Below are positions 5,747-64,000 of a stretch of 64,000 nt of DNA, piece by piece (positions within the stretch are counted from its first letter, which is position 1; each line of letters begins with the position of its first letter). Source of the DNA: Candidatus Saccharimonadales bacterium. GTDB lineage: Bacteria; Patescibacteriota; Saccharimonadia; Saccharimonadales; SZUA-47. The DNA lies in the NCBI GenBank assembly GCA_041737385.1, contig JBGSRU010000002.1, positions 333,437-397,436 on the forward strand, read 5' to 3'. Below the pieces are notes generated by a model. It had not been told where the DNA came from and did no database searches. It saw only the letters and a list, made by a program, of their open reading frames with translations. The position numbers and the translations under genes are program-made.

Positions 5747-5799
5747 TGTTTCTGTCTTATAGTTAAAAAGCTTGTGTTATAGAGCTGTATTTCTACAAG

Positions 5800-6228: not shown

Positions 6229-6255
6229 AGCATTATCATAGCGTATAGTGTGAGT

Positions 6256-6537: not shown

Positions 6538-6554
6538 TATTGTAATAACATTTA

Positions 6555-6563
6555 TGTTATAAT
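6555..6563 (+). promoter_or_regulatory. extended -10 promoter (TGTTATAAT) placed 8 nt before ATG 6572
   Basis: Exact TGnTATAAT. The spacing predicts a leaderless transcript. Confidence 0.55.
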
Positions 6564-6571
6564 AAATATAT

Positions 6572-7081
6572 ATGGTTTCTGATAATTTATGTGAGGACGG
6601 CGCAAACGGTTTAGGCTGTCGTCTTGGTTTCTTGCTTGATAGTGATTTTACGTCACGAAATTCACCTAATAAGGTGAATTTTTCTTCTTTTACTAAAACC
6701 GAAACACTCGCTAAAAGTAGAAACAACGATTCTATTATCCGTGTCTTACAGGGAGAGTGGTCGGAGAGATTTCGCTTTATTACACACAGCATTGGTGGGT
6801 CTACCGTTGGAGTAGCTTTAGAAGAATTCAGGGGCGTCAAAACAGAAAGAGCATTAAGTATATTTACTAACCTTTCAGAAGCTGGTGCGGCATATGTAGA
6901 CATAGCAGCAACTCAACCCTACGCAGATTGCCCAATAGAAGAATACCGACTTCCTATTGATACAACGAAAGAGCTCCTAGAGGCTAGAGCAGTGATATGT
7001 CAGATGACTATTGAACTTGTAAATTCTGTTGACGGACCTTTAGCATTTGAAAGGGCATTACAGACTGCCGAGTGTTCTTAG
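6572..7081 (+). CDS. hypothetical protein (uncertain)
   Basis: 169-aa ORF with a leaderless-type promoter. A 126-aa ORF is open on the opposite strand (6523..6903), and the N-terminal half has odd composition. No motif recognised. Confidence 0.35.
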   Translation: MVSDNLCEDGANGLGCRLGFLLDSDFTSRNSPNKVNFSSFTKTETLAKSRNNDSIIRVLQGEWSERFRFITHSIGGSTVGVALEEFRGVKTERALSIFTNLSEAGAAYVDIAATQPYADCPIEEYRLPIDTTKELLEARAVICQMTIELVNSVDGPLAFERALQTAECS

Positions 7082-10341: not shown

Positions 10342-10400
10342 CGATAGCCCTTGTTAATAATTTCTACTCATAATAAATGTGGTGTCACGCGAAAAGCCAC

Positions 10401-10430
10401 AAAAAAGAGGCTGATTCTCCAGCCTCTTCA
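10401..10430. terminator. bidirectional rho-independent terminator
   Basis: An A-run, then GAGGCTG (10407-13), loop ATTCTC, CAGCCTC (10420-26), then TT. It lies between convergent genes. Confidence 0.7.
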
Positions 10431-10474
10431 CTCATTCGTCCCACGTACCACTTACTGCGTACCCAACACCTGTA

Positions 10475-11116
10475 CTATTTCTTTTTCTTAATAACCGGTG
10501 CAAAGAAGAACATATAGGCGTTCATACCGACTACCATGCCAGCTATTGGTGCCAATACTAGAGTTGTGCTCAAAGCATTATTTCCAATCGCCACAGCAGG
10601 GTTCAAAAAGCCAGCTGAAGCGAGTGAAGCCAGTAGTGCTCCTGCGCTCAAGGATGCGCCAATGGTAATAGCCGCATAAGCACCTTCTAATTTCTGAGAG
10701 ATTGCAGCAGCAATTCCGGATCCGAACACTGCAGCACCTGCAGCCTCTACCCAAAATACACGCCACTCGAAGCTAGCTACGCCGGCAGAAGCAAGAGTAT
10801 CATTAGTCGCATAGTTAAAGAATAATAGCGCTACAGCGCCTCCAAGTAGCTGACAAGCAATATAAATAACCGCATCTATAGTTGTAATCTTCTTAATAGT
10901 CCATAAACTTACTGTTACTGCAGGATTTACGTGCGCTCCAGAAACGTGTCCAATCTTTGTCACTATCAATGCAAGTGCAGCACCAGCTGACAAAGCGATA
11001 TACCAAGCTGACGTTCCGGCTCCAAACATATTGCTCACGACGAGTACTGCCGATGCGAGCATAAACGTGCCAATAAACTCTGCCATTGGCGCTCTTAATT
11101 TTTGTTTCGTTAGCAT
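10475..11116 (-). CDS. MIP-family channel (aquaporin/glycerol facilitator)
   Basis: Two NPA boxes (HVNPAVT and FLNPAVAIG) and six hydrophobic helices. The start is set to the Met preceded by SD GGAGGG. Confidence 0.85.
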   Translation of the reverse strand: MLTKQKLRAPMAEFIGTFMLASAVLVVSNMFGAGTSAWYIALSAGAALALIVTKIGHVSGAHVNPAVTVSLWTIKKITTIDAVIYIACQLLGGAVALLFFNYATNDTLASAGVASFEWRVFWVEAAGAAVFGSGIAAAISQKLEGAYAAITIGASLSAGALLASLASAGFLNPAVAIGNNALSTTLVLAPIAGMVVGMNAYMFFFAPVIKKKK

Positions 11117-11185
11117 AGAACCCTCCATAACCTTAAATAAGTTTACTTTTACAGGTTCAGTATACTACCGAATGTCAAGATTAGA

Positions 11186-12784
11186 TTATTTCTTCTTAAC
11201 AGATGGCTTCTTGGCAGATTTTTTAACAGTTTTTTTCGTGACTTTATTTTTAACTGGTTCGCGGACTCGAGCAGGTGATGTTACGAGTTTTTCCTCTTCT
11301 TTGAGTTGGTTGCCAAATTTTTTAATGAGGGCAGGTGCGATGAAGGTAGTGATGATGACAACAAGCACAATTGTGCTGAACAGCTCACTAGACAGTACGC
11401 CGAGAGCGCTACCTGTAGCTGCGAATATTAATCCTACTTCACCACGAGGGACCATTGAGACACCAACAAACATCTTTTCGGTTCTTGTACCTTGGGCTGC
11501 AAAACCAGCAACAAACTTAGAGGCTATAGCTATTACAGAAATAATACCTGCTGTTAGATACAGACCTGGATCTAGTAAAGAGCCGAAATCGATCTGTAAA
11601 CCGGTGAATACGAAGAACACAGGAATGAATATGAGGCCTATGCTGTTAATCAGATCTTCGATGTGTGAGTGACGGTGCTTCTTGATGATTGAAGCAACTG
11701 TTTCATCACCCTCAAGGTATTTGATGTCTTCAATAATTTCTGGATCTGAGAATGATTCAAAGTGAACCGCGTCTAACAAGAGTCCAGCAGCAAATGCACC
11801 AATGATTGGTTCAAGGCCAAACAGTTCAGCAAGGTAACCAAATACGAGTGCGAAACCAACAGCAAGTGTGAGTTTCATACCTATCCCAGTATGAATAGCA
11901 CTGAACAACTTTGAAATAGGTTTCGCAAGTAATCCACCCAAAACGATTGCTCCACCAAGGAAACCAAATGATTTAGCTGCTAGTTCTATGATGAGCGCTG
12001 GAGTTAGTTCGCCGCCAGCTGCAAGTGAAGATACGATTGCAAGCACGATAAGTCCGAGTACGTCATCGATTACGGCTGCGCCAAGTACTGTTTGAGCAGC
12101 ACGAGTCTTCGTAAGCTTTAGTGAACGGAAGACAGACGCAGTGATTCCAACACTGGTTGCAACAAGCGATGCACCCAAGAATAGTTGTGCATTAGAAGAA
12201 GCGTCACCGAAGAAAATAGGCGCGAGAACAAAAGATCCAAGTGAGAAGGGTATAACAACGCCAATCAAAGCAACCATAAGTGCTCGAACACCAACTTTTT
12301 GCATCTCTTTAGTATTTGATTCTAGTCCAATTGAAAACAGTAAGAGCAGTGCACCAAACTGTGCAAGGAAACTTATTATTTCATTTGCAGCAATCTCTCC
12401 GATAAAACCCCAGCCGAAATATCCAACAGCAGACAATGCAACACCAGCGAGTAGCTCACCAATGACGGCAGGCTGACCGTATTTTTCGACAAAGTTACCT
12501 AGCTTACCTGCAATCAAAACAAGCGCAAACATAGCGAATATGATGCCAAAATGATGCGCTCCGCCTTCAGAGTGCTCTTCGTCTTCAGTAGCAACTTCAT
12601 TATCAGTATAGTTTGCTTTTACTTCGTTTTCGCCAACATGCGAATCACCTTCATAAGAGCTGGATTCTTCAGCGACTGCGACTAACGAATAATCGTTAGC
12701 AGCGTTGACTGAATTAGTTTGTAAAACTACAAGAGGTACAGCCGCAAAGAGCAGTACTGCCAAACTGGCAATAAATCGTTTCAT
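11186..12784 (-). CDS. cation:proton antiporter (Na+/H+ exchanger family) with signal peptide, acidic/His N-terminal region and Lys-rich tail
   Basis: At least 10 TM helices with Na_H_exchanger-like blocks (IGELLAGVALS, GLESN, PRGEVGLI). The C-terminus reads KKTVKKSAKKPSVKKK. Confidence 0.8.
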   Translation of the reverse strand: MKRFIASLAVLLFAAVPLVVLQTNSVNAANDYSLVAVAEESSSYEGDSHVGENEVKANYTDNEVATEDEEHSEGGAHHFGIIFAMFALVLIAGKLGNFVEKYGQPAVIGELLAGVALSAVGYFGWGFIGEIAANEIISFLAQFGALLLLFSIGLESNTKEMQKVGVRALMVALIGVVIPFSLGSFVLAPIFFGDASSNAQLFLGASLVATSVGITASVFRSLKLTKTRAAQTVLGAAVIDDVLGLIVLAIVSSLAAGGELTPALIIELAAKSFGFLGGAIVLGGLLAKPISKLFSAIHTGIGMKLTLAVGFALVFGYLAELFGLEPIIGAFAAGLLLDAVHFESFSDPEIIEDIKYLEGDETVASIIKKHRHSHIEDLINSIGLIFIPVFFVFTGLQIDFGSLLDPGLYLTAGIISVIAIASKFVAGFAAQGTRTEKMFVGVSMVPRGEVGLIFAATGSALGVLSSELFSTIVLVVIITTFIAPALIKKFGNQLKEEEKLVTSPARVREPVKNKVTKKTVKKSAKKPSVKKK

Positions 12785-12889: not shown

Positions 12890-15082
12890 TTATCCAAAAA
12901 GTGAAGTCAACAAGCTTCGTCTAGAATAACTTTGTGTGCTACCTACCTCAGCACCAAAAGCTTCCTCTTCGCCGTGTGCAGGCTGGTCAGTCGCATTGAT
13001 TGGCTTGGGGAATTTTAAGAATTTTGGACCGAGCTTATCTGCTACGCCAAGTATTTGAGCCCACACAAAACCTTCTGCGAGTGGGCGTGCATGAATTGGT
13101 AAAATCTGTTTTTTAGCTTCCTCAATACCATACTCATCAAGCGGGAAAGACACTACGTTCGCCATGTTACCAGGAGGTAGTAGCATGCCACCCTGAATAC
13201 CTGCTATTAAGGCAATCGATGGGTTATTCTCAGTAAACTTGAATCCTTCACGAACACCAACGAGGTTGTCGGCAACACTGCTAAATCCTGCGATCCCTAC
13301 ATATTTACCAAAGTCGTTAATGAGGTCTTTAACTATTTTGTTTGGTATTTTATCTGTTAATTCGTCAAACTTTCCGACAAGTTCTTTGAACACAGGGCTT
13401 ACAAATATCATACTCATACTCTGGAAAGGGAAGACATCTAAAACATCAGTAAAGCTATGACCAAGTGCTCGTTGCATTCTAGTCACATCTGTAACACGCC
13501 TATAAACCGCTACCGGGTTCCATTTACTCGTTACATCTCCGCCGAATCCAAGCTCTGCTTCAATCTCATCACTCACTTCTTTAGCGCTTACAGCAAAAAT
13601 CCTTGCAGTCGTAGCATCTAAGTTGTGCGACTCCATCCAATTAGTCAATCCTTCAAAGTCATCTGCAGCAACAAAATTCTTTATTTCTCTTTGCATCTCT
13701 ATTCTGTCATAACTATGTTGATCTGAGCGATCGGGTAAATTAGCAAGAACACCTGATATAAACTGGTCATAACGATGAAAATCTTCAATTCTTGATCCTT
13801 CTTCTTCATGACCGTGTGATTCAATGTGATCCTTCAAAAGCAAGTCTTTAAAACCGTCCACTTTATCAGAAAAAGCACCCAAAACATCATGTCGCATACC
13901 ATTTTTATCTTGCTCTTTTCCAAGAATAGGAAGTACAAGATTTTTTACTGACCTTCCCATTACACCTTTAACAAATCCTAGGTTACGACCTAGTGCTTCA
14001 CGGGATAGTTTACCTGCATCTTTTTCTTCGCCCTCGATAGCACCTATTTTTATCAACTCTTTAGTAATCATTTTGTTTGTGTACTCTAAAGAACGTAGCG
14101 CAGGAACCATACCTACTGACAAAGACTGCCATAATAATCCTATGCCACCAAAACGTTCTAGGGTCGCAATAAACGGTGGATCACCAAAGAAAGGGAAGCC
14201 TGCTTTATCTGAAATATGGCTTTGTAGAAGTGCTTTGATGTGACCAATTGATTCTTGTGTTGCAGGATCTTCAGAGGCAGTACTCTCTCCAGCTATAGAA
14301 GATAACGTATCTTCAACCATTTGGTCCGCAAATGATTGTGCTTGTTTGACAATTGTTGAGGCTTCTTTTGTGGTCATTCCTGAAGCTCCTACAGTAGTCA
14401 CCATAGGGGCTAAGACTGATGCAAGCTCTGTCACAATTGCAACTCGGTCTTGAAGTACTAAGTCTTTTCGTGCTGTTATCTCTTTATATATTGTTTCAAC
14501 ATCCAACATCATTCCTTCAGCGACCACAACCGTTCCTTCGATAATTGCAGTAAATTTAAGTGTTGCAGCTAGTTCCTCATCAATATGATGCAAGGTCTCT
14601 TCATCACCTTCTTTTCTGGCATTATGACGTTTTAACCCAATTAAAACAGCCTGCGAATAATAGTGTCCCTGAGTAATTGTTCTTCCAGAAGATAATTCTT
14701 TAATACCGTGAGCGAACACGCCTGTTCCTATATAGTCTAATTTATCCGGACCGTGCTCTAGATGTTCGCCCTCTTCTTCATTTTCTAGACCTTCTAACAT
14801 CTCGTCTAGAAAATCGCTCATTTCTGAATCAAGGCTTTCAATTTCTCGAATTGCTTCTAACTCTTCAGGGGTCAATTGTACTTCATCGCGGCTTTGCCCA
14901 AGCGGGTCTTCAAGGAAGAAGTCTGCTACTACGTCAAGACCTCTACCGGCCTGATGTCCAGCGTCACCTGAATATACGATTGCAGCTCCTAGGCCAGCCG
15001 CAGCGATTCCACCTTTAATTATTGCATCTCTTCTTGACATTTCTGGATTCAAATGAGGATCCGTTTCTTGCGTGTGTGCCAT
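12890..15082 (-). CDS. large orphan protein with Tat-like N-terminal signal
   Basis: ORF 12890..15139. ATG 15082 is preceded by SD GGGAG. The N-terminus MAHTQETDPHLNPEMSRRDAIIKGGIAAAGLGAAIV resembles S-R-R-x-x-x-K plus an h-region. The remainder is acidic and unrecognised. Confidence 0.6.
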   Translation of the reverse strand: MAHTQETDPHLNPEMSRRDAIIKGGIAAAGLGAAIVYSGDAGHQAGRGLDVVADFFLEDPLGQSRDEVQLTPEELEAIREIESLDSEMSDFLDEMLEGLENEEEGEHLEHGPDKLDYIGTGVFAHGIKELSSGRTITQGHYYSQAVLIGLKRHNARKEGDEETLHHIDEELAATLKFTAIIEGTVVVAEGMMLDVETIYKEITARKDLVLQDRVAIVTELASVLAPMVTTVGASGMTTKEASTIVKQAQSFADQMVEDTLSSIAGESTASEDPATQESIGHIKALLQSHISDKAGFPFFGDPPFIATLERFGGIGLLWQSLSVGMVPALRSLEYTNKMITKELIKIGAIEGEEKDAGKLSREALGRNLGFVKGVMGRSVKNLVLPILGKEQDKNGMRHDVLGAFSDKVDGFKDLLLKDHIESHGHEEEGSRIEDFHRYDQFISGVLANLPDRSDQHSYDRIEMQREIKNFVAADDFEGLTNWMESHNLDATTARIFAVSAKEVSDEIEAELGFGGDVTSKWNPVAVYRRVTDVTRMQRALGHSFTDVLDVFPFQSMSMIFVSPVFKELVGKFDELTDKIPNKIVKDLINDFGKYVGIAGFSSVADNLVGVREGFKFTENNPSIALIAGIQGGMLLPPGNMANVVSFPLDEYGIEEAKKQILPIHARPLAEGFVWAQILGVADKLGPKFLKFPKPINATDQPAHGEEEAFGAEVGSTQSYSRRSLLTSLFG

Positions 15083-15149
15083 TTTACTCCCACGAAAAGC
15101 TAGCGCTTTAATCGTATTTTTTTGATTATTTGTCAACAACTCTTTATCG

Positions 15150-15168
15150 AAATGTATTATATATCACA
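15150..15168 (-). promoter_or_regulatory. second copy of the 19-nt upstream motif
   Basis: AAATGTATTATATATCACA is identical to 12822-12840. It lies upstream of the 730-aa orphan. Confidence 0.55.
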
Positions 15169-15346
15169 AAAATTTGAGGTCAAGGGTGTAAGCAACTTTT
15201 CGAGATATGCCTTGATGTAAAGTATGTCGACAAAGCCATAACCGGTATTGTATCCACGCAAATTTTTTTTTGCTAACTTTATATAAAACGATTGTATATG
15301 CTTGCGAAGATAAGAACATCTAAAAATCGTCCATTATGATTAATTG

Positions 15347-15355
15347 TGATATAAT
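15347..15355 (+). promoter_or_regulatory. extended -10 promoter TGATATAAT, about 150 nt upstream of alr
   Basis: Exact TGnTATAAT on the plus strand in the 368-nt spacer. Confidence 0.45.
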
Positions 15356-15507
15356 TCACATAAATAGTTAAGAATTCAAGTCTAACCTAATACAATGTAT
15401 AGATTTTCCGTAACCCTAAAATCACGCAAAGATACTATTTTGTGTTGCCCAGGCCCAGTACAGTTGCGCAAGTCAGCTGTATGCATCCCTAATAAAATCG
15501 TAACTAT

Positions 15508-16656
15508 ATGAGTAAGAAATCTATCGGGCTAGAAGCCCAAATACACAGTTTAGTTTGGGCAGAGGTTGACCTTCAAAAGTTGCGAAATAATTTTTTGCAA
15601 TTACGTAAGTTTGTAAATGATAAAACTAAGTTTTTAGCTGTTGTTAAGGCTAATGCGTATGGTCATGGAATTCAACGTATATCCAAAGAGTTAGAGAAGC
15701 TAGGCGTTGATTACCTTGGTGTTTCGAATCTCAATGAAGCTGTGACGATAAGAAGATGTGGAGTAATGACTCCAATTCTTGTGTTTGGATATGTATGCCC
15801 AGAGGATATTGGTATTGCAGTAGATAATCACATCACACTTACGGTATGTGAAGATACCATGCTTAGTGCTGTTGCTTCTTACGCAACCAAAACCGATAAA
15901 ACTGTGCCAGTCCACATACAGATTGATACTGGCCTTCGCATGTACGGCGTTGATTATAGGGAAGTTGGATCATTTATAAATAAAGTCCTGCACCATTCTA
16001 ATATCTATGTAGAAGGGGTTTATAGCCATTTTACTAACTCAGAGGACAAAGATACTATACTTTCTTTTGAGCAGCTAGATCTTTTCAATAATGCATTGAA
16101 GGAAATCATCAGTTATGGGGTTAACCCTCCCTATATTCATATTGCAAATGGAGCTGCAGTTATAAATATTCCTGAATCGCACTATACGATGGTAAGAACA
16201 GGAACGTTTTTATATGGCAACCAGACAAAAGGACAAAATCCTAAATTTAAGCCAGAGCAGATCATGACATTAAAAACAAAAGTTGTTCATAAATCACAAT
16301 TAAGTCCCAGTGACCAAGTGGGTTATGAGAAATCATTTATAACGTCAGGAATTAAAGAAATCGCATGCTTACCAATTGGTTACGGTGATGGATTTAGGCA
16401 AAAACCTCATTGGGAATATGTTTTAATCAATGGTCAGCAAGCCCCTGTTATAAATGGTGTCAGCATGGATAAAACAGCTGTTGATATATCAAAAATTAAA
16501 AATGTGGAAATTGGAAGCGAAGTGGTTTTGCTGGGAACACAAAAAGAGACAATAACAATAAATCAAGTTGCACAGATGCTGAATGCAGCTAACTATGAAA
16601 TTCTCTCCGGATTAACTAGCAGGGTTAAGAGAATTTATTTAAACGAAACATTATGA
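15508..16656 (+). CDS. alr: alanine racemase
   Basis: PLP-Lys motif AVVKANAYGHG, central HIANGAA, and C-terminal GVSMDKTAVDI block. The length of 382 aa fits. Confidence 0.9.
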   Translation: MSKKSIGLEAQIHSLVWAEVDLQKLRNNFLQLRKFVNDKTKFLAVVKANAYGHGIQRISKELEKLGVDYLGVSNLNEAVTIRRCGVMTPILVFGYVCPEDIGIAVDNHITLTVCEDTMLSAVASYATKTDKTVPVHIQIDTGLRMYGVDYREVGSFINKVLHHSNIYVEGVYSHFTNSEDKDTILSFEQLDLFNNALKEIISYGVNPPYIHIANGAAVINIPESHYTMVRTGTFLYGNQTKGQNPKFKPEQIMTLKTKVVHKSQLSPSDQVGYEKSFITSGIKEIACLPIGYGDGFRQKPHWEYVLINGQQAPVINGVSMDKTAVDISKIKNVEIGSEVVLLGTQKETITINQVAQMLNAANYEILSGLTSRVKRIYLNETL

Positions 16657-18215
16657 AACAATTAATAAATACTAAACCACAGATACATACCCCTCAGCTA
16701 GAAATTGAGTTGCTTTCTGAGTTACGCGAAAAAGCATTTGCGCGTCGCCCCCAGCTGGAAGAGATCATCAACGCCTCACGAGATATGACACTTTTTGATT
16801 TCTCAAAAATGTATAATGTTCCATACTCACAAAATATTAATGCAACCCTGAAGCTACAATTCATTGATACATTTGCCAAAGAAGTGGAACGATTACTTGG
16901 CATTGAAGTAGCAGCCAGCTGTGCTCGTCAACTAGCAACAACCTATAGAGTTACGACGACTGACCATCATGGACCAATAAGCGAACCCGGTATGGTAAAC
17001 AGCAATATTCATGAAGCACTACCATATTTAAATGGAGACGAAACTATAAAAAACATTATTGTGCTTGGTTGTGCGAATGTCTCTTTTGACAACGAATCGT
17101 TTCCGCGAGGATTGTTATTTCACGTTCCTAGTGCTATTGATGCAGAATGTAAACAACTTGTATTTTTCTCCCGTTCAGTACGAGCTAAGCCTGTTATATA
17201 TCACCCATCATACGATCATGAAAACCTAACTAATGCAAAGAAATTACTTGCTAACTGGCAGATAGAAAAATCCATTAGTGAAAACGAGAAGAATAAAGTT
17301 GAAAAAATTCTTGATGACATATATGCCGAACCTTCTGTGATGCAGTGTACCAATTTTTCAGAACAAGTAACTAAAACGAACTACAGCCTTTGGGCTATGC
17401 TTATGAAGCATTATGAAAATGCACCAAAGCTTGTATATATCGAGCAAGAAAACATTGTTAATTTGCTTTTATTAAACTACCATCTAGACCAAGATACAAT
17501 CATCCATAGATTGTTATTTACACCCAAATACCACGAACTTATAATTAAACACTTCAACGGCATCGATAAGTGCTTTTCACTTCAAGAAAATAAGGGAACT
17601 TATCTATTCTGGGCACTGCCAAATGGACAAAAATATCGTGTACAGCTCTGGAAAAAAGGAAACTTTCTCACAACTGATGATGGTAGCTACCAGGTTCCAT
17701 TGACTCCTGAAGGCATTAGAAATGCGATCAATAATAAAGAGCTAATTCCTAGCACACTTATGTCGTTCACTCTTTTGTCTTTTTATTACGGTGTGAAACT
17801 CACAGGTGGGACTAACCAAACTACATATCTTAATCAGATGAAAGAGGCATTTATAAATATGCAAAATGAGTATGGAGATACAGAGAGTGCAAAGTTTGCT
17901 CGCAAAGTACCCACAAAAGAGCTGTCTGTGGCTCTGCACAATCTAGCATTTCTAGAAAACATATGGGGCAACCATTTACCTGCAACTTGTATAGATATTA
18001 TCCTTTATGGTGACAAAAACACGATGTCTAGCTTAAAAGAAGAAGCGCAAAAATTAACACTTAACGAAGTTTTTGAATGGGCTTTACCCGATCTTTATAG
18101 CTGGTACTATAGTGCAGCCGAGAGAAGTCCGCTATTATCAAACATTTCTAAGGCACAGATTAGAGACTATCTTGGTATAGACGAAAAAATAATTCCCATT
18201 GCCATACCTAGTTAA
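16653..18215 (+). CDS. orphan 520-aa protein translationally coupled to alr
   Basis: ATGA start/stop overlap with alr. There are no P-loop, ATP-grasp or TM features that I can see. Confidence 0.6.
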   Translation: MKQLINTKPQIHTPQLEIELLSELREKAFARRPQLEEIINASRDMTLFDFSKMYNVPYSQNINATLKLQFIDTFAKEVERLLGIEVAASCARQLATTYRVTTTDHHGPISEPGMVNSNIHEALPYLNGDETIKNIIVLGCANVSFDNESFPRGLLFHVPSAIDAECKQLVFFSRSVRAKPVIYHPSYDHENLTNAKKLLANWQIEKSISENEKNKVEKILDDIYAEPSVMQCTNFSEQVTKTNYSLWAMLMKHYENAPKLVYIEQENIVNLLLLNYHLDQDTIIHRLLFTPKYHELIIKHFNGIDKCFSLQENKGTYLFWALPNGQKYRVQLWKKGNFLTTDDGSYQVPLTPEGIRNAINNKELIPSTLMSFTLLSFYYGVKLTGGTNQTTYLNQMKEAFINMQNEYGDTESAKFARKVPTKELSVALHNLAFLENIWGNHLPATCIDIILYGDKNTMSSLKEEAQKLTLNEVFEWALPDLYSWYYSAAERSPLLSNISKAQIRDYLGIDEKIIPIAIPS

Positions 18216-56157: not shown

Positions 56158-56173
56158 AGGTCCCATCATCTAA
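56158..56173 (+). repeat. copy of the tRNA-Glu 5' end (AGGTCCCATCaTCTAA)
   Basis: 15 of 16 identical to 56528-56543, the start of the tRNA-Glu gene. Confidence 0.7.
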
Positions 56174-56197
56174 AGTAAGAAATGCCTGTGGCATTTA

Positions 56198-56295
56198 GCA
56201 AGGAGACTTTCTGAATCAAACTTGTTTTCAAAAGAGAAGTTACGGGTGAGACAATCCTGTGAATTGTCGCAAGGAGACTTTCTGAATCAAACTTG
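56198..56295 (+). repeat. two perfect 27-nt direct repeats (GCAAGGAGACTTTCTGAATCAAACTTG), each preceded by a short hairpin
   Basis: Copies at 56198-56224 and 56269-56295, period 71 nt. Preceding hairpins are AAATGCC-tgt-GGCATTT and GACAAT-cctgtga-ATTGTC. Confidence 0.8.
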
Positions 56296-56415
56296 CTTGA
56301 TATCATGAAATCTCGGGGTCGCTGAAAGTGACCGCTGAAAGTGGGTAGGACATCTTAACCGTCAAAAACATAGCGTTTTAAAAATCTTAATATATAATGT
56401 TGTTAAGTGTAGCTT

Positions 56416-56444
56416 AAAAAATCACGAGAGGACTCGTGATTTTT
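56416..56444. terminator. bidirectional rho-independent terminator
   Basis: AAAAA, ATCACGAG, loop AGGA, CTCGTGAT, TTTT. Confidence 0.8.
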
Positions 56445-56528
56445 AGAGGAGTGACTTGTGTGACCAAGTCTTTACTTAACAAAGAGTAACGTCTTTGTTA
56501 AGCTAGACAGGTCATCAAGTCACGACGA

Positions 56529-56603
56529 GGTCCCATCGTCTAACGGTTAGGACACTAGATTCTCAATCTAGCAATACGAGTTCGATTCTCGTTGGGATCA
56601 CCA
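56529..56603 (+). tRNA. tRNA-Glu (anticodon CUC), CCA encoded
   Basis: Hand-folded. Acceptor GGTCCCA/TGGGATC. Anticodon stem CTAGA/TCTAG with loop TTCTCAA. T-arm ACGAG-TTCGATT-CTCGT. 75 nt. Confidence 0.9.
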
Positions 56604-56665
56604 TTTTAGTTTTACAAAGGTCAGAAAATCTGCAGTTCACGTATTTTCTATTTTGTGTCTTGGGA

Positions 56666-56695
56666 CAATAGTGAAAGAGTTCGACTCTTATTAGG
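56666..56695 (+). repeat. degenerate copy of the tRNA-Glu 3' half (T-arm-like hairpin AAGAG-TTCGA-CTCTT)
   Basis: CAATA…GAGTTCGA.TCT…TT.GG is collinear with the tRNA variable loop, T-arm and acceptor. It lies 63 nt after the tRNA. Confidence 0.5.
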
Positions 56696-56737
56696 TGTAT
56701 AATGTGGTAAATGAATAAAAAACTAACTATATAGTCT

Positions 56738-57259
56738 ATGGCGAATGAAATTTTATTCGAAACAACTATCGATAAATACGATTTTGGACCGTACTTTTAT
56801 ACAGTTGTTTATGTAGGCAGCGACATTACTGACCAGCTACCTATGGATAAGTATCCACGATTAAGAGTAGAGGCTACTGTTGACGGCTACCCTTCGAAGG
56901 GCGCGTTAATGCCTGACAAGATAGGCTCAAAACAAACAGAGCACCTGCTGAATAAAAGTTACACGAAACGTGGTGAAAGAATCTGGTATTTTCAGGTACC
57001 GAAGAAAGTACTTAAAGAAATATCGAAAGAACTTGGTGATTCTGTAGAGGTCAAAATAAGTGTGGGTAATCAAGATGAGGTCGAAATTCATCCAGCAATG
57101 GAGGATTTCTTAAGAGAAAACGATACAGTTAATCAAAAATGGGAAACATTGACTCCAGGAAAAAAGCGATCTTTAGCATACCCTGTGTTGAAAGCAAAAA
57201 CAGATATAACACTCGAGAAAAGACTTATAGAACTAGAGGAAGCATTACTCAACCTATGA
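56738..57259 (+). CDS. DUF1905 + YdeI/OmpD-associated-like protein
   Basis: N-terminal DUF1905-like beta domain. The C-terminal TPGKKRSLAYPVLKAKTDITLEKRL resembles the YdeI C-terminal motif. Confidence 0.55.
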   Translation: MANEILFETTIDKYDFGPYFYTVVYVGSDITDQLPMDKYPRLRVEATVDGYPSKGALMPDKIGSKQTEHLLNKSYTKRGERIWYFQVPKKVLKEISKELGDSVEVKISVGNQDEVEIHPAMEDFLRENDTVNQKWETLTPGKKRSLAYPVLKAKTDITLEKRLIELEEALLNL

Positions 57260-57421
57260 CAATCATTCCTTGAGAGGTTTTTTATAATTGAATCTCAAAA
57301 TAACTCTACAACAAACAATACTTTTCTTACGCTATGAGGCTCAGAAGCCTCTAAGCAAAAACGTATTTGGAGATTATATTCTTAAACTAATGATGCAAGA
57401 AATATAGACAATTAAAAACTA

Positions 57422-58096
57422 TTAGTTTATTTTACAGAATCTTTTAAAGTAATTTTGAAATTCAACTGCTGCTTTGTAGTCTTCTAGTATCGAAGGTAGT
57501 AAATCGTCTGATAGTGCTAAATCAATTGGATACTCTTTTCCATAAGTCCAAGTTTTATTTAAAATATACGGGTTTTTATTCAGTGAGCCTTCAAACTCTT
57601 TGGGAACTCGTTTGTTTCGTTCGCCGTTTACTCCACCCCAATGTTTATTAAATGTTTTTGACTTAATTATTTTCATAAATTCTTCTGGGTTTTCAGCCAT
57701 TGCTGATTGTATTTTATTTTTAATTGATGTACCGGGCATATACATGCCGCCTAATACTTGGATGTTATCTACGACTCCTAGAGATATCAAGTAGCCAGGC
57801 CAGGTGAATGTATCTGATTTATTAATTCCAAAAGCAACAGCCATGTTAGTCCGGTATGGTGCTTTATCTTTGCTGAAACGAACGTCTTTATTGATCCTAA
57901 GCATCGCATTCGGTCCATCAACTTCTATGTCTTGGTCAATCTTTTTCATACCTTCAAGCAAATCTGTACTAAATTTCTTAAACGGATCTCTGACAAACAT
58001 TTCGTACCCACTTCGATGCTCGTCAAACCACTCCTTATTATTATTCAGTGTTAAATTACCAAAAAATTCTATATATTTATTTGTAAAGTATTTCAT
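57422..58096 (-). CDS. DUF2461 (TIGR02453) family protein
   Basis: FFGNLTLNNNKEWFDEHRSGYE…RINKDVRFSKDKAPYRT pattern. Confidence 0.7.
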   Translation of the reverse strand: MKYFTNKYIEFFGNLTLNNNKEWFDEHRSGYEMFVRDPFKKFSTDLLEGMKKIDQDIEVDGPNAMLRINKDVRFSKDKAPYRTNMAVAFGINKSDTFTWPGYLISLGVVDNIQVLGGMYMPGTSIKNKIQSAMAENPEEFMKIIKSKTFNKHWGGVNGERNKRVPKEFEGSLNKNPYILNKTWTYGKEYPIDLALSDDLLPSILEDYKAAVEFQNYFKRFCKIN

Positions 58097-58129
58097 GTAA
58101 TTATCATAGCTAAATAAAAATATATTTGC

Positions 58130-58150
58130 AATACGATACCGTATCGTATT
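58130..58150. promoter_or_regulatory. perfect palindrome AATACGATAC-C-GTATCGTATT, candidate TetR operator
   Basis: 10-bp arms, 12 nt upstream of the MFS start, overlapping a TATTAT -10-like hexamer. A TetR gene is the next gene downstream of the MFS gene. Confidence 0.55.
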
Positions 58151-58161
58151 ATCATTTATTT

Positions 58162-59682
58162 ATGGAAATATTTACAAGATCTAACTCAAAACAAGCAATA
58201 CAAAAAAAGCGCTGGCTCATCCACGCAGTCATGAGTAGTGGGCTTTTACTCGTAATCATGTCAGTAAGCTCATTAAATGTCGCTATACCGACTTTAGTAC
58301 GCGAACTTGGGACTACATCAACTCAACTACAATGGATATTAGACAGTTACGCATTAGTCTTTGCAGGGCTACTATTTTTAGCCGGTTCAATTGGAGATAG
58401 ATATGGCAGAAAAGGTGCATTTCTAGCTGGAATGAGCGTTTTCGGAATTGCAAGTATCTTCGCTGGTTTAGCCGATACACCTCAACAGTTAATTGCAAGC
58501 CGTGCTCTGATGGGAGCTGGTGCAGCTTTTATTATGCCGGCAACACTGTCAATTATTGCAAACGTATTCACAGACAAAAGAGAACGAGCAAAAGCGGTAG
58601 CTATGTGGGCTGGGTTTGCTGGAGCGGGCGGTGCTATTGGCCCCGTAGTTGCTGGTACTTTACTCGAGTTCTTTTGGTACGGCTCAATATTTTTCGCTGC
58701 AATACCCGTTGTTATACTCTCTATGGCTTTGACAGTGTTATTCGTGCCGACCTCGATGGATCCTGAACATGAAAAACTCGATTGGACAGGTGCACTACTT
58801 TCAGTGGCAACAATCGGTGCATTACTCTACACCATTATCGAAGCGCCCGTTTACGGATGGGCTAGTATACACACACTTATCTCAGCGATTATTAGTATCG
58901 TCTTGTTTATTCTGTTTATTTTATGGGAGCGTAGAGTCAAACATCCTATGCTGCCACTTAGTTTCTTTTCATCTAAAAGATTTTCTATCGGTAGTTTGAC
59001 TTTAGTACTCACGTTCTTTGGATTATTTGGTTTGTTTTATGTCTTGACGCAATACTTGCAGTTTGTACAGGGTTATACAGCGCTGGAAGCGGCAATACGC
59101 ACATTGGTTATTGGTGGAGCATTAGTAGCTGTTTCTAAATACGTGACAAACTTTGAAGAGAAACTTGGGACACGAAAAGTTCTTACAGGAGGACTTATTA
59201 TTGTTGGCATTGCTTTTGTAATGCTAGCGCAATTAAACGCAGACACTTCAGTCTGGTATATTTTGGCTAGCTTAACAGTACTTGGAGGCGGCATGGGACT
59301 TGCAATGCCGACTGCTACAGAAGCTATTATAGGTTCTGTGCCAACTAGAAAAGCCGGGGTTGGTTCAGCAATGAATGACACAACACGTGAATTTGGAGGT
59401 GCACTTGGCATAGCGGTATTTGGAAGCTTACTTGCTTCTAACTATAGCTCAAACATCGCAAGTTCTCTATCAAATTTACCACAAGAAGCGCTAAAAACTG
59501 CTGAATCTTCAATTGGTGGGGCTTATGCAATTGCTGAAACATTACCCGAACAGGCTAATACAATTATTATGGCTGCTAATACTTCATTTATAGATAGCTT
59601 ATCCGTCATAATGTACATTGGTGCCTCAGTCATGGTCTTGGCTGCATTAATTGCTTACAATCTTATGGTTGATAATAAATAA
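58162..59682 (+). CDS. MFS transporter, DHA2 (EmrB/QacA-like, 14-TMS) drug:H+ antiporter family
   Basis: GSIGDRYGRK (motif A-like), and many TM helices over about 500 aa. The start is set to ATG 58162. Confidence 0.8.
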   Translation: MEIFTRSNSKQAIQKKRWLIHAVMSSGLLLVIMSVSSLNVAIPTLVRELGTTSTQLQWILDSYALVFAGLLFLAGSIGDRYGRKGAFLAGMSVFGIASIFAGLADTPQQLIASRALMGAGAAFIMPATLSIIANVFTDKRERAKAVAMWAGFAGAGGAIGPVVAGTLLEFFWYGSIFFAAIPVVILSMALTVLFVPTSMDPEHEKLDWTGALLSVATIGALLYTIIEAPVYGWASIHTLISAIISIVLFILFILWERRVKHPMLPLSFFSSKRFSIGSLTLVLTFFGLFGLFYVLTQYLQFVQGYTALEAAIRTLVIGGALVAVSKYVTNFEEKLGTRKVLTGGLIIVGIAFVMLAQLNADTSVWYILASLTVLGGGMGLAMPTATEAIIGSVPTRKAGVGSAMNDTTREFGGALGIAVFGSLLASNYSSNIASSLSNLPQEALKTAESSIGGAYAIAETLPEQANTIIMAANTSFIDSLSVIMYIGASVMVLAALIAYNLMVDNK

Positions 59683-59697
59683 GTTATACTTAGTGAA

Positions 59698-60276
59698 ATG
59701 GACCAACAAGATACAAGAATAGAGCTGTCTAAAAACAAGATAACCGAAGCGGCATTGGAATGGATGCTAGCTGATGGTATGGACGCCCTAAGCATCGATG
59801 GTCTCGTTAAACGATCTGGCGTAGCAAAGACAACCATATATCGTCATTTTGAATCGATAAACGATATACTTGCAGACACCATAATTAAAACACTTCCAAA
59901 ACAAAAATCTGTTGATACTGGCTCTATTATTACCGATATGGAGTTATTACTTGGCTATACTCGTCAATCATTTGAATCTGCAACATGGGGAAAGTTACTT
60001 GCCGATATAGTAAAGAAAACAATTCAAGACGAAGAATTTAGAAAAATAAAAGGCAAACACATGGCCCAAATGATGGATCCAATGAGAGTTGCAATAAAAC
60101 GCAGTATAGATAGGGGGGAAATTAACCCAGACATTCCAACTGAGAATGTTATTGTGCATATGATTGGGCCATGCTATTACGCCCATTTTGAATGTCCAGA
60201 TCTGTATAGAACAAAAAAAGACATCGATTTGATTGTGCACAACTCTTTGTCAGAATACTTAGTAAATAACCAGTAA
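59698..60276 (+). CDS. TetR/AcrR-family transcriptional regulator
   Basis: N-terminal HTH: LSIDGLVKRSGVAKTTIYRHFES. Confidence 0.85.
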   Translation: MDQQDTRIELSKNKITEAALEWMLADGMDALSIDGLVKRSGVAKTTIYRHFESINDILADTIIKTLPKQKSVDTGSIITDMELLLGYTRQSFESATWGKLLADIVKKTIQDEEFRKIKGKHMAQMMDPMRVAIKRSIDRGEINPDIPTENVIVHMIGPCYYAHFECPDLYRTKKDIDLIVHNSLSEYLVNNQ

Positions 60277-60292
60277 TGATTTTAAAAGTAAC

Positions 60293-60871
60293 ATGATAGA
60301 GACTGATAATTTTGAAAAGGTCATAATAAGTTCTAAGCAAGAATTAAGAAACTGGCTCTTGAAAAATAATGGACAAAGCGAAAGTGTGTGGATAGTTACT
60401 TACATGAAGCATATTGGTGATTGTTACGTCTCTAAAGAACAAATACTTGACGAGGTACTATGTTTTGGCTGGGTAGATGGCATTAGACGTAAATTAAATG
60501 ATAACCAGACTATGCAGCTAATCAGTAAACGCAAAGCTCAACATTGGGCTAGGTCATACAAAAAAAGAGTAGAGAACTTGGCTACTGCAAACCTAATGCA
60601 TGAGTCAGGAATTAAAAGCGTGGAAGAAAGCAAATCAAGTGGGCTATGGAATTTTATGGATGACGTCGATGACTTGATACTTCCTAATGATCTTAAACAG
60701 GAATTACTGAAAGCCCCACCAGCCTATTCTAACTTCATGTCATTTAACAATTCTTCAGTGCGAAATATGTTACGCAGAATCAAATTGACTAAAACTGAAA
60801 AAACTAGGATAAAGTACATTCAGCAAACGGTAAACCTTGCTAAATTAAATAAAAAAGTACCACAAACCTGA
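60293..60871 (+). CDS. YdeI/OmpD-associated family protein
   Basis: ELRNWLLKN…VWIV…ILDEVLCFGWVDGIRRKLND pattern, and a C-terminal LRRIKLTKTEKTRIKYIQ. Confidence 0.6.
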   Translation: MIETDNFEKVIISSKQELRNWLLKNNGQSESVWIVTYMKHIGDCYVSKEQILDEVLCFGWVDGIRRKLNDNQTMQLISKRKAQHWARSYKKRVENLATANLMHESGIKSVEESKSSGLWNFMDDVDDLILPNDLKQELLKAPPAYSNFMSFNNSSVRNMLRRIKLTKTEKTRIKYIQQTVNLAKLNKKVPQT

Positions 60872-60905
60872 CAGCCATAGCAACTAATTAATTTTAAACT
60901 TTTAC

Positions 60906-61130
60906 CTATAAACAATGTAATTCATCTTTACACATTATTTCTTTATAGATACTATGATCTAATATATTATGTGAACCTTCCCACACACTACTTTTGTAAA
61001 TTATTGCTAGTTTTCTATATCTTAAGCCATTAAATGTCATTACTGTAATTCCTGTATGCTCAAGAATCTTAACTACTATCATCGCTTGCTCCCTGAGACT
61101 TCCATCATGATGATTTGGATTTATAGTCAA
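60906..61130 (-). CDS. small hypothetical ORF (doubtful)
   Basis: 74 aa with a non-ATG start. No convincing motif. Confidence 0.25.
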   Translation of the reverse strand: MTINPNHHDGSLREQAMIVVKILEHTGITVMTFNGLRYRKLAIIYKSSVWEGSHNILDHSIYKEIMCKDELHCL

Positions 61131-61511
61131 TACTTTAACACTTAGACCTCTCTTTATTTTTTACGAGCACATGTTAGTGAACCTGGTGGCTCAGAGCCTA
61201 GTTATGTATGAGCTCACAATAATAACTTCGCGTTTTGCTTTCTTTATATCGGTACTGAAAGCTTTAAACTAGGAGTATTCATCAAAAAGCTCTGACTAGA
61301 CAGGGAAGTGATCTCTTTTTCTAAACATCTTTAAATTCCTCGAATTTCTCAAGACGTTTATCAAGCTTAATTAAATCATCGTAAAGCGAGTTCCACCCAT
61401 TTGCCGGCAGGCTCACCAAATAAAGTAGGTCACAAAAGTGGCCTTTTTTATTTGATGTCCTGACGAGCGATCGAGCTAAAAGAGTTCGCTAATCCCCCGA
61501 ATCTTTGATTC

Positions 61512-61548
61512 AGACGGGCGGATTCTTCCTATCTAGTTGGGATCACCA
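61512..61548 (+). repeat. left copy of the ~46-nt direct repeat (AGACGGGCGGATTCTTCCTAT…GGATCACCA)
   Basis: 21-nt exact core shared with 63871-63891. Both copies end in GGATCACCA. Confidence 0.75.
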
Positions 61549-61555
61549 GTGTTAG

Positions 61556-61580
61556 AGCCTCACGTTTATGTGGGGCTTTT
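61556..61580 (+). terminator. terminator-like hairpin after repeat unit 1
   Basis: AGCCTCA, loop, TGGGGCT (one G-U pair), then TTT. Confidence 0.45.
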
Positions 61581-61680
61581 ACACTTGTGGTTTCACTTGT
61601 GAAACCGAACTCGAGAGTTCGTTCAGCACCCAATACTCAAGCTGCTGGTACTCTTCTCGTTGGGATCACCAACTTAAGCA

Positions 61681-61702
61681 CTCACCCCCGTGGTGAGTTT
61701 TT
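61681..61702 (+). terminator. rho-independent terminator after repeat unit 2
   Basis: CTCACC, loop CCCGT, GGTGAG, TTTTT. Confidence 0.7.
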
Positions 61703-61862
61703 AAATTCACAGCCTCATCGAGGTCGAGCCAGAAGAGTTCGTTATTTATCAGTCGCTACGCTACAGACGTGCAACATTCATTTTAATTTGAAAAATATCT
61801 CTACCTGTACACCGAATTACGCTATATACATGGAGGAATTAAACAATTATGATTGGGGTTGA

Positions 61863-62363
61863 ATGAATGAAAATGATTTCTATAAAAAACTCTTAAAAAA
61901 CTTACACCGATTCTTTATGTCAAAAACTTTTGATATATCATTAAGTGAAGATTTAACGAGCGAAGTATTACTAACTGTTTATGAGCAATTCAAGATACAG
62001 CAAGGAAATTCGAATATCAAGGATAGAGAGAAGTATGTATATGGTATCGCAAAAAATGTTTGGCTTAGGTACCTTAGGTCAAAGTACTCAAACTTAGTTG
62101 ATTATGTTGAGAACGTCGAAGATTTTGAAAAATATGTCCTAAATTCAGTCGAAGAATATGAAAAGATGTCAATAATCCATAGGGCAGTCCCTTTTATTGA
62201 ACAACTACCTGAAAAGCAAAAACAGATATTACTGTTAAGGTTCAGGGATGGAATGAGTCTCAAAGAAATATGCAAAGCGACTGGTTCAAATATGAACTAT
62301 GTTAAAACTACCCAGAAAAGAGGAATCGCCTCATTGAAGAATAATATCCAAGGAGATAAATGA
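61863..62363 (+). CDS. sigma-70 family (ECF-like) RNA polymerase sigma factor
   Basis: Region 2-like YGIAKNVWLRYLR. Region 4 HTH: LPEKQKQILLLRFRDGMSLKEICKATGSNMNYVKTTQKRGIASLK. Confidence 0.8.
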   Translation: MNENDFYKKLLKNLHRFFMSKTFDISLSEDLTSEVLLTVYEQFKIQQGNSNIKDREKYVYGIAKNVWLRYLRSKYSNLVDYVENVEDFEKYVLNSVEEYEKMSIIHRAVPFIEQLPEKQKQILLLRFRDGMSLKEICKATGSNMNYVKTTQKRGIASLKNNIQGDK

Positions 62364-63745
62364 TGGAAAACAATGATTTAGAAAAATTATTTTCAGGAGA
62401 ACAACTTGAACCAAGTAAAAAATTCGAAAAACAATTACTCAATAGGCTCAGTAAAGATGCTAAAAATCCAAAGATATGGTTTTTTTATAAGCTGAGCAGC
62501 GTATTAGTTATCACACTGATGCTCATAGGCGTAGCTCTTTATCAACCAAACTCTGATAATTTGAGCAATACAGTTCTTCTTAAAGAGCTATACCAAAAGG
62601 CGTTGGCGGATGAACTACCAGAGTCAAATGATGTAAACTTCTGGAAAATAATCGGAGGTACAACTTATGGAGCACAAGCACCTCTTTGCACAAATACTGA
62701 ATCGGGTGTTTCCTATCAGAAGCTTTCATTGCTGTATAAAAACAATCAAGAGTCTGCGTATTTTAATACCAGCACAGAGCAATATACACAACCGTATATG
62801 AATTATAGCGATGATTCTGATATTCCCGCCTACGATGATTCCGTATTCACCGGTGCAAATTCATACGTTGTTCAACAATATCTAGCAAATACTTATCTTA
62901 CAAACGAAAACGGCAATAAACTAACTGATAACGCAACAACAGAAGTTAAAACCGAAGGATCTTACCTCGTGTATGCCAAACTAGAAACACCAAGTTCGGA
63001 TGTAAAGAACTTCGTAGACGGATGTAATAATCTACAGATAAAAATTGAGATTGATGCAGAGACAGGATTATACGAGTCTATCTACATTTACAATGTTTCA
63101 AACAATAGTAAGTTAGATGAAGCAAACCTTAGTTTTTCGCTCTTTCAGCAGATTGAAACTGCTAGTTTCGCGAGCTTTTCTGATGTTGATGAAGAATTTA
63201 TCTCTGAGGGATTTGATCTTGAAACCGCACGATCAAATACCTTGAATAATTCCTACTCCCGAATAGTAAACAAAGAAGCAGGTTTCGAATTTTGGTATGA
63301 CAAACCACTGCTTGGCAAGTCAGAATTAAAATTAAGTCGTGATAATAACGGAAATGTGACGTCGTATCAATATGTCTTTTTGAAACATCCAGAAGTAACC
63401 TACATTATATACACATCATTCGCTAGAGACGTCATAAATTTGGAAGAGAAAATAGTTTTAGATAATCTAGAAGTTGTTACTAGAAACACTGGTGAGTTTA
63501 AGTTGCCCGGGTATGGAGAAGTAACGAGTACTTATTTGACAGCAAAAAATGACACTACAAAATACCAACTATCGATAACTGGCTCGACTGATATCATTGC
63601 GGTATATATTGAGGCTCCCCTTGAGCTGGGAGTATCAACAAAAGTAGATAAAAATGCCCCAGATTTTCCATATATAGAGGACAAAATATTGTCTATGATC
63701 GTCAGTGTATTTCCTCCTAATACAGACCCACCGAGTGGGCTATAA
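62360..63745 (+). CDS. single-pass membrane protein coupled to the sigma factor (putative anti-sigma/partner)
   Basis: ATGA overlap with the sigma gene. Short cytoplasmic N-terminus, a TM (YKLSSVLVITLMLIGVALY), and a large extracytoplasmic domain. Confidence 0.5.
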   Translation: MMENNDLEKLFSGEQLEPSKKFEKQLLNRLSKDAKNPKIWFFYKLSSVLVITLMLIGVALYQPNSDNLSNTVLLKELYQKALADELPESNDVNFWKIIGGTTYGAQAPLCTNTESGVSYQKLSLLYKNNQESAYFNTSTEQYTQPYMNYSDDSDIPAYDDSVFTGANSYVVQQYLANTYLTNENGNKLTDNATTEVKTEGSYLVYAKLETPSSDVKNFVDGCNNLQIKIEIDAETGLYESIYIYNVSNNSKLDEANLSFSLFQQIETASFASFSDVDEEFISEGFDLETARSNTLNNSYSRIVNKEAGFEFWYDKPLLGKSELKLSRDNNGNVTSYQYVFLKHPEVTYIIYTSFARDVINLEEKIVLDNLEVVTRNTGEFKLPGYGEVTSTYLTAKNDTTKYQLSITGSTDIIAVYIEAPLELGVSTKVDKNAPDFPYIEDKILSMIVSVFPPNTDPPSGL

Positions 63746-63870
63746 AATATCACAATCTGTAAGAAACTTAAGCCGATCAATATTGCATTATGTGTAGATA
63801 CAGACAAAAAGCATGATCTCTAGTCAAACAGAACCCTAAAGAGCCTGCTAAGCCTGCAAACTTTAGCTTA

Positions 63871-63907
63871 AGACGGGCGGATTCTTCCTATTCGCTCAGG
63901 ATCACCA
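63871..63907 (+). repeat. right copy of the ~46-nt direct repeat
   Basis: AGACGGGCGGATTCTTCCTAT, then TCGCTCAGGATCACCA. Confidence 0.75.
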
Positions 63908-64000
63908 AAGAAGAATTTTCAGACGATAAGGCTTTAGAAAAAGGATTCTTCTCTGTAAAAAAGGTGTGTTTCGTGTTTGAATTTTTATAATTTCATAGCT

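Follow-up and report, generated by a model that had tools for sequence, protein, structure and literature searches.

A probable tandem array of decayed, integrase-less islets at the tRNA-Glu(CTC) gene of a Candidatus Saccharimonadales bacterium

Genomic islands and prophages of the classical tRNA-linked kind (P4-like elements; classification of Williams, 2002) carry tyrosine integrases, and their crossover falls in the T-loop or at the 3' end of the tRNA gene. Here we analyse the gene blocks behind a tRNA-Glu(CTC) gene in a 64,000-nt stretch of a Candidatus Saccharimonadales bacterium (GenBank assembly GCA_041737385.1, contig JBGSRU010000002.1, positions 333,437 to 397,436 of the forward strand). 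This whole stretch is called the window below, and positions are those of the window unless the locus of another genome is named. The closest described systems are the cis-mobilizable elements (CIMEs), which have been defined in streptococci, where tandem accretion at attachment (att) sites is described for integrative and conjugative elements (ICEs) of the ICESt1/ICESt3 type and for integrative and mobilizable elements (IMEs) at tRNA-Lys (PMC5704250, citing Pavlovic 2004 and Bellanger 2011). By analogy, the blocks in the window would fit the CIMEs of the streptococcal literature, and we consider it probable that they form a tandem array of decayed, integrase-less, CIME-like islets at a tRNA-Glu(CTC) integration hotspot. 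Saccharibacteria live as epibionts on host bacteria, and their genomes are very small, which is why routes of gene gain and loss matter for understanding the group.

Copies of the tRNA-Glu 3' end and the blocks between them

The intact tRNA-Glu(CTC) gene lies at 56529-56603 on the plus strand (ARAGORN; 64.3 bits with the Rfam tRNA model). An earlier sequence-only reading of the window had pointed to an exact 18-nt repeat of its 3' end, and this repeat is real: a pattern search finds the 18-mer TTCTCGTTGGGATCACCA at 56586-56603 (S0, plus strand, the left, attL-like junction) and at 61654-61671 (S2), while base composition alone predicts ~1.3e-6 copies and shuffled versions of the window contain none. 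That reading, which saw a simple repeat pair, overlooked two further copies. One of them, S1 (61531-61548, ATCTAGTTGGGATCACCA), matches at 16 of 18 positions and is exact over its last 12 nt, the core TTGGGATCACCA that occupies 56592-56603 in S0; the other, S3 (63890-63907), is degenerate and was found by a repeat search. The four copies span 7.3 kb in the same orientation. Between 56.5 and 63.9 kb there are four occurrences of GGATCACCA, always on the plus strand, compared with ~0.24 expected in the whole window, and no 3'-end repeat was found for the other tRNA gene of the window, tRNA-Leu(CAA), which served as a control. Hence the direct repeat of the tRNA 3' part that marks the far boundary of an island is present as S1, S2 and the degenerate S3.

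The block between S0 and S1 (56604-61530, 4.9 kb) has a GC content of 0.370, and none of the 517 core windows of 4.9 kb is as low (mean 0.425, standard deviation 0.017, minimum 0.379). Its tetranucleotide distance from the core is 0.0199, compared with a core maximum of 0.0185. Both computed profiles are outlying; the segment had already looked AT-rich by eye. Low GC persists beyond 61671 up to the window end at 64000, and the second block, 61672-63907, has a GC content of 0.358 against the same core reference.

The limits of the 4.9-kb block are best seen in comparison with another genome, at locus L005. Here a tRNA-Glu that differs from that of the window only in the T-stem is followed in direct succession, with nothing in between, by a terminator hairpin and an ~85-nt unit, B, which ends in a copy of the 3' end of this genome's own tRNA (TTCCCGCTGGGATTACCA). 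Window positions 61531-61671 are collinear from end to end with L005 positions 2293-2431, comprising the tRNA end, the terminator and B; with the 18-mers left aside, 72 of the 99 aligned positions are identical (73%; z 8.8 relative to shuffles). Because the DNA beyond S1 corresponds in order to that beyond a real tRNA gene in L005, the right, attR-like junction of the 4.9-kb block is most likely the end of S1 at 61548, not 61671. S1 also has the form of a right junction, as it combines a non-tRNA arm, the 12-nt exact core and the ancestral flank. The exact 18-mer S2, in turn, probably belongs to a conserved 123-nt module of terminator and B. In the simplest reading of these sequences, the ancestor of the window would have had the tRNA followed by the terminator and B, and the 4.9-kb block would have entered later at the tRNA 3' end. 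The two exact 18-mers are thus probably not the attL and attR of a single 5.07-kb island, as originally proposed.

S1, S2 and S3 are the ends of longer units, all on the plus strand. E1 (61453-61548, ~95 nt; repeat search and nhmmer family membership) ends in S1, the window copy of B (61587-61671, ~85 nt; alignments and nhmmer) ends in S2, and E3 (63812-63907; similarity to E1 and nhmmer) ends in S3 and forms the right end of the second block. E1 and E3 share a 70-nt repeat (61479-61548 and 63838-63907; 74% identity) with an exact 20-mer in common, and 57 of 74 positions match even without the last 18 nt (z 8.8). S1 matches the tRNA only in its last 12 nt, and the sequence upstream is a non-tRNA arm ending in ATCTAG, common to E3. 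Models built from B with nhmmer match E1 and E3 weakly, and a joint model recovers the four units with E values from 1e-16 to 1e-23; E1, E3 and both copies of B (window and L005) constitute one sequence family that can be aligned along its length. Neither the 20-mer of E1 and E3 nor the core of unit B was matched by viral contigs or by any of the retrieved loci. Unit B of L005 folds stably (z -3.75), its terminal stem showing one compensatory change relative to the window copy, and the folding energy of B, E1 and E3 in the window is no better than that of shuffled sequence (z -0.5 to -1.0). We considered that the units could be tRNA-like RNAs and rejected this, given that neither ARAGORN nor Rfam calls them and the window copies fold unremarkably.

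The units are accompanied by terminators and by a short motif. Terminator scans yield a terminator-like hairpin with a T-run just 5' of E1 (61427-61444, plus strand) and another hairpin after S2 (61680-61698, plus strand); a terminator hairpin after S1 (61549-61584, plus strand) is supported by its fold and by alignments, and its position and part of its sequence match the terminator that follows the genuine tRNA-Glu gene of L005 and of the relative locus L094. The motif AGAGTTCG is present on the plus strand at 56676-56683, 61481-61488, 61614-61621 and 61734-61741. Measured from the ends of the repeats, these copies lie 73 nt past S0, 66 nt past S1 and 63 nt past S2, and also 67 nt ahead of the end of S1 and 57 nt ahead of that of S2. 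Six matches exist in the window compared with 1.96 expected, and four of the six cluster at the array on one strand. Unit B of L005 has AGGGTTCG at the corresponding position, and the relative L093 carries AGAGTTCG ~100 nt past its tRNA. By analogy, the S sites and this motif look like core sites with repeated arm motifs, similar to the attP of a tyrosine integrase.

At least three repeat-bounded segments make up the array, which runs off the window end; the window stops 93 nt past S3. Given the four-copy array and the collinearity with L005, the island boundary therefore has to be revised, and the array is more complex than the single island first described, an interpretation that is upheld in part. 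No integrase, resolvase, recombinase or transposase domain was found by a Pfam search among open reading frames (ORFs) of at least 150 aa in the whole window. This agrees with the earlier statement that the block has no recombinase, and 'decayed or mobilised in trans' is a fair description of it.

The cargo listed in the sequence-only reading was borne out by Pfam. On the plus strand, the 4.9-kb block encodes a protein with DUF1905 and OmdA/YdeI-like domains (56738-57259), a DHA2/EmrB-type transporter of the major facilitator superfamily (MFS; 58126-59682, MFS_1), a TetR-family regulator (59698-60276, TetR_N and TetR_C_11) and a second OmdA/YdeI-like protein (60293-60871). A DUF2461 protein (57422-58096, E value 4.8e-47) and a doubtful 74-aa ORF with no Pfam match (60906-61130) are on the minus strand. 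Homologues of the MFS protein are named EmrB/QacA or DHA2 by their sources, and the top non-self match is 62% identical. The nearest named homologues (~50% identity) come from Actinomycetota, and closer unnamed matches (54-62%) lie on short contigs. Actinomycetota is the phylum that hosts many Saccharibacteria, and transfer of the pump from host to epibiont would be possible. The MFS-TetR pair recurs elsewhere in different contexts (for example, in L086), once between IS110 transposases.

The second block carries a gene for an ECF-type sigma factor (61863-62363, plus strand; Pfam Sigma70_r4_2 and r2). The end of this gene is overlapped by the start of a gene for a 461-aa protein (62360-63745, plus strand, from the ORF list), for which the Pfam search gave no match and which, judging by gene position only, could be an anti-sigma partner.

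Two further observations concern the window. At 56677-56704 (plus strand, GAGTTCGACTCTTATTAGG...), a decayed additional copy of the T-arm and acceptor 3' end of the tRNA may be present (low confidence); it belongs to the repeat family D6, has 79% identity to tRNA positions 56578-56596 and resembles a short third copy in the relative L091. Low GC (0.36-0.37) is also seen at ~15000-18200, a stretch that covers the gene for alanine racemase and an ORF of 520 aa for which Pfam gave no match; within the core reference, this stretch has the lowest GC.

The tRNA-Glu locus in relatives

A search with the histidine kinase encoded next to the tRNA retrieves only Candidatus Saccharibacteria genomes, and the nearest relatives are 61-73% identical in this kinase. 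The gene order in most of them is gltX, DUF3048, histidine kinase, response regulator, tRNA-Glu, a variable interval, CNNM/CBS and a second histidine kinase; L003 and L094 are rearranged downstream of the response regulator. The variable interval ranges from 0.85 kb to 9 kb, and its gene content is different in each species examined: one HAD-like gene in L091/L092 (0.85 kb), one 308-aa ORF in L090, PadR and membrane proteins in L001/L089 (2-3 kb), genes including a Y1 transposase in L093 (9 kb), and more than 8 kb beginning with a large serine recombinase in L094. The L093 transposase gene, inside the variable region at 9627-10241 on the minus strand, is of the IS200/IS605 type.

None of the syntenic loci of relatives contains homologues of the window cargo proteins. 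The absence of the cargo from loci with 61-73% kinase identity and the uninterrupted succession of tRNA, terminator and B in L005 are the pattern of an insertion polymorphism. The view of the block as an accessory insertion at the tRNA-Glu 3' end holds up: the block is missing from the same site in relatives, its composition is atypical, and it has repeat-defined boundaries, so that none of the features that would have spoken for a core segment, namely presence in all relatives, core-like composition and the lack of such boundaries, was observed. Additional copies of the tRNA end exist also in L090, L091 and L092; no repeats were found in L006-L009, which came from a metagenome scan with a response-regulator alignment. 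L005 itself has a 655-bp one-gene islet (positions 2432-3086, with a 182-aa ORF) between the end of its unit B, TTCCCGCTGGGATTACCA, and another copy of the tRNA end, TCCCAGCTGGGATCACCA. This islet is a second integrase-less, repeat-bounded example at tRNA-Glu and supports the generality of the pattern.

Large serine recombinases are encoded next to tRNA-Glu in two relatives. In L094, the gene for a 530-aa recombinase (5259-6851, minus strand) adjoins tRNA-Glu(CTC) at 5225-5299, the 3' end of which is nearly identical to that in the window; in L095, the recombinase gene (10001-11593, plus strand) adjoins tRNA-Glu(TTC) at 11553-11627 on the minus strand. The two recombinases are 65% identical, and their genes converge on tRNA-Glu and overlap its last 41 nt: the last ~13 residues are encoded by the complement of the tRNA, and the preceding ~10 by the complement of the terminator. 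In both loci, variable cargo stretches from the recombinase to a conserved pair of a tyrosine-recombinase gene and mgsA. Since serine recombinases abut tRNA-Glu in L094 and L095, integrative elements use the tRNA-Glu site in relatives. These elements show neither tRNA-end repeats nor ~90-nt units in the 8-10 kb examined.

A tblastn search of the window with the recombinases of relatives gave nothing significant and no remnant. We rejected a serine-recombinase pseudogene after S0, as the sole tblastn match (E value 0.035) consists mostly of the 13 residues encoded by the tRNA complement. The 531,481-bp contig that contains the window is also absent among the best 120 matches of serine-recombinase homologues.

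Upstream of tRNA-Glu, the window has a conserved structured element of ~120 nt, which we call X (56159-56365, plus strand), partly duplicated in tandem here (56175-56227 and 56246-56298). A covariance model places X beside tRNA-Glu in ten loci of nine distinct relatives (L091 and L092 are near-identical at the locus), among them L001 (12156-12281), L004 (12463-12588), L094 (4925-5050), L003 (15367-15495, minus strand), L090 (5232-5358, minus strand, and 4983-5113, plus strand) and L091 (4882-5022, minus strand). In L090-L092, X is on the opposite strand and downstream of the tRNA. Covariation strongly supports the structure: of 33 predicted base pairs, with 93.9% of cells being standard pairs, 21 are changed on both sides, compared with 10.4 ± 2.0 in shuffles (none of 500 reach 21) and 3-8 in slid controls. 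Two of the predicted pairs are almost always G-U (in 7/7 and 6/7 sequences), an indication of one functional strand. X may be terminated by a hairpin with a T-run at ~56420-56450. It matches no Rfam family, and we rejected a hammerhead, SRP RNA, tmRNA or intron on inspection of the sequence; X is a candidate new non-coding RNA. The idea that the ~90-nt units are shortened reverse copies of X was discarded: they have an 11-mer in common with it, with no link by nhmmer or by the covariance model.

X is embedded between fragments of tRNA-Glu that match each genome's own tRNA (window 56160-56174 and 56345-56364; L001 12158-12172; L003 ~15495-15370, minus strand). In the plus orientation, X interrupts the D-loop of a 5'-half copy of tRNA-Glu that bears the genome's own substitutions; in L003, for instance, GGCCTCATCTTCTAA is present in both tRNA-Glu and the 5'-half copy. 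In L090-L092, X is reversed and interrupts the T-loop in a 3' fragment that comes from the other tRNA-Glu allele, with the 3' flank of that allele kept. These arrangements suggest two ancestral tandem tRNA-Glu genes, of which one or the other would have been disrupted.

Possible origin of the array

If the blocks are decayed CIME-like islets, the layout would be, from left to right, the tRNA with S0, the 4.9-kb block, E1 ending in S1, the terminator and B ending in S2, the 2.2-kb sigma block, and E3 ending in S3. Each block would have entered through site-specific recombination, the chromosomal partner being the tRNA 3' end or one of its downstream copies and the incoming partner an element site with a tRNA-end-like core. 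The tRNA would be rebuilt on the left side, and on the right side the element arm would be left joined to a copy of the tRNA end, producing the ~90-nt units. As each event would restore a usable target, elements could pile up in tandem. In the case of the 4.9-kb block, the crossover would lie inside the last 12 nt (TTGGGATCACCA), which therefore would set the right junction at 61548 and not at 61671. The recombinase genes would have been lost or would act in trans. What the sequences show are the repeats, the unit family, the collinearity with L005, the atypical composition, the variable content in relatives and the lack of a recombinase in 64 kb; how the blocks recombined, in which order they arrived and whether they can still move is what we infer.

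Several points weigh against this scenario. The recombinases seen at tRNA-Glu in relatives are of the serine type only, and their elements have no tRNA-end repeats; moreover, serine recombinases need neither long segments of identity nor arm sites. Unit B is 73% identical across genomes whose kinases are ~63% identical, and its tRNA-like end tracks each genome's own tRNA. Simple decay does not explain the conservation of B between genomes together with this tracking; they point to selection, gene conversion or a recent transfer and not to a neutral scar. No intact element with an arm of the E1/E3 type was found in the viral collection or in the loci of relatives. As the best kinase identity is 73%, no strain-level relative provides a truly empty site or a precise pair of presence and absence. 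Finally, an integrase or recombinase gene is possible just past 64000.

Other explanations have to be set against the same data. One is that of a single 5.07-kb island with the exact 18-mers at 56586-56603 and 61654-61671 as attL and attR, so that E1/S1 and the terminator would be internal to it. S0 and S2 are indeed the sole exact 18-nt pair, and recombination between them would remove everything in between and restore the tRNA with the flank that follows S2. Still, we regard this as unlikely: tRNA, terminator and B are uninterrupted in L005, with which 61531-61671 aligns end to end, S1 is itself built like a junction, with a foreign arm and the 12-nt exact core, and beyond S2 there is another low-GC block, whose right end resembles E1. 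It would be very unlikely, in our estimate, for the array to have arisen with no site-specific integration at all, the units being decayed paralogues of an old tandem tRNA-Glu array and the genes having been gained by ordinary insertion, deletion and homologous recombination. Remnants of a second allele are present, with the 5'-half copy upstream in L001, L089, L003 and the window and a downstream 3'-end copy of the L001-type tRNA with its flank in L090-L092, and MAFFT can align the units along the whole tRNA. Uniform decay, however, would not yield units in which the last 12-18 nt are exact and the other ~70 nt barely recognisable; furthermore, the exact 20-mer of E1 and E3 is non-tRNA sequence, and the composition of the cargo is atypical.

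Alternatively, the ~90-nt units, each with a terminator, could have a function of their own, either as reusable docking sites or as small tRNA-like RNAs, in a platform for cassette capture on which a recombinase acts in trans. Such a role would be consistent with the conservation of B in position and sequence between distant genomes, including the match of its 3' end to the resident tRNA, with the stable fold and compensatory change seen for B of L005, with the terminator hairpins after S1 and S2 and before E1, and with the serine recombinases beside tRNA-Glu in L094 and L095, which are candidates for action in trans. We nevertheless find it improbable, as four units from two genomes are too few for covariation to be judged, the window units fold like shuffled sequence, the window has no recombinase and its contig is absent from the 120 best serine-recombinase matches, and the serine-recombinase loci have no such units. 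A bolder form of this idea, to which we give very little credence, makes the tRNA-Glu locus of this clade a dedicated gene-capture platform. The conserved ~90-nt units, with their terminators and AGAGTTCG motifs, would be self-regenerating docking sites, where a recombinase with its gene at another place (such as the serine recombinases at tRNA-Glu in relatives) would insert and shuffle small integrase-less blocks, and element X would be a part of the machinery. If true, a bacterium of the Candidate Phyla Radiation (CPR) would possess an integron-like system based on a tRNA end.

Returning to the decayed, CIME-like islets as the favoured explanation, a decayed array of tRNA-linked islets is ordinary for bacteria in general; this one is of a known kind, has more pieces than first described, and is of modest weight. 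Its interest lies in a defined hotspot behind tRNA-Glu where efflux, regulator and sigma-factor genes are swapped between species. Footprints of site-specific integration with no local recombinase mark a place to seek active mobile elements and trans-acting recombinases in the phylum, and the corrected boundary at 61548 matters for the detection of excision joints.

Comparison with known systems

Similar to integron cassette arrays, the window has short integrase-less blocks in series, with a recurring site of ~60-140 nt between them. Unlike integrons, it has no intI, attI or Pc; its blocks are multi-gene, in both orientations and some with their own regulator, and its recurring site derives from a tRNA 3' end and not from an attC-type palindrome. 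We therefore rejected an integron cassette array, as no integrase is present in the window and the units are derived from the tRNA end and fold like shuffled sequence. Insertion sequences (IS) and miniature inverted-repeat transposable elements (MITEs) were rejected as well: the window encodes no transposase, and the repeats of the tRNA end that bound the blocks are long and direct rather than inverted.

The serine-recombinase elements of L094 and L095 share with the window blocks their place in the chromosome, directly behind the 3' end and terminator of tRNA-Glu, and a variable cargo, which in L094 and L095 lies beyond the recombinase. They differ in that the window has no serine-recombinase gene or detectable remnant, and the 8-10 kb examined in L094 and L095 contain no tRNA-end repeats or units.

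Classical tRNA islands resemble the window in their tRNA 3'-end target, in the repeat from the T-loop or acceptor to CCA, in the restored tRNA, in atypical composition and in accessory cargo. In contrast to them, the window has no integrase next to the tRNA, and its islets are very small (0.12, 2.2 and 4.9 kb).

With respect to CIMEs, the differences are that no parent ICE or IME related to the window islets was found and the L094 and L095 elements show no sequence link to them, that no conjugation genes are in view, that the host is a reduced-genome CPR bacterium, that mobility of the window islets is hypothetical, and that the window junctions bear a conserved ~90-nt unit, terminators and the AGAGTTCG motif. 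On the other hand, like CIMEs, the blocks S0-S1, S1-S2 and S2-S3 have no integration or transfer genes, several of them stand in tandem, they keep direct repeats of the attL/attR type in which the 3' end of the target gene is contained, and each junction would regenerate a target.

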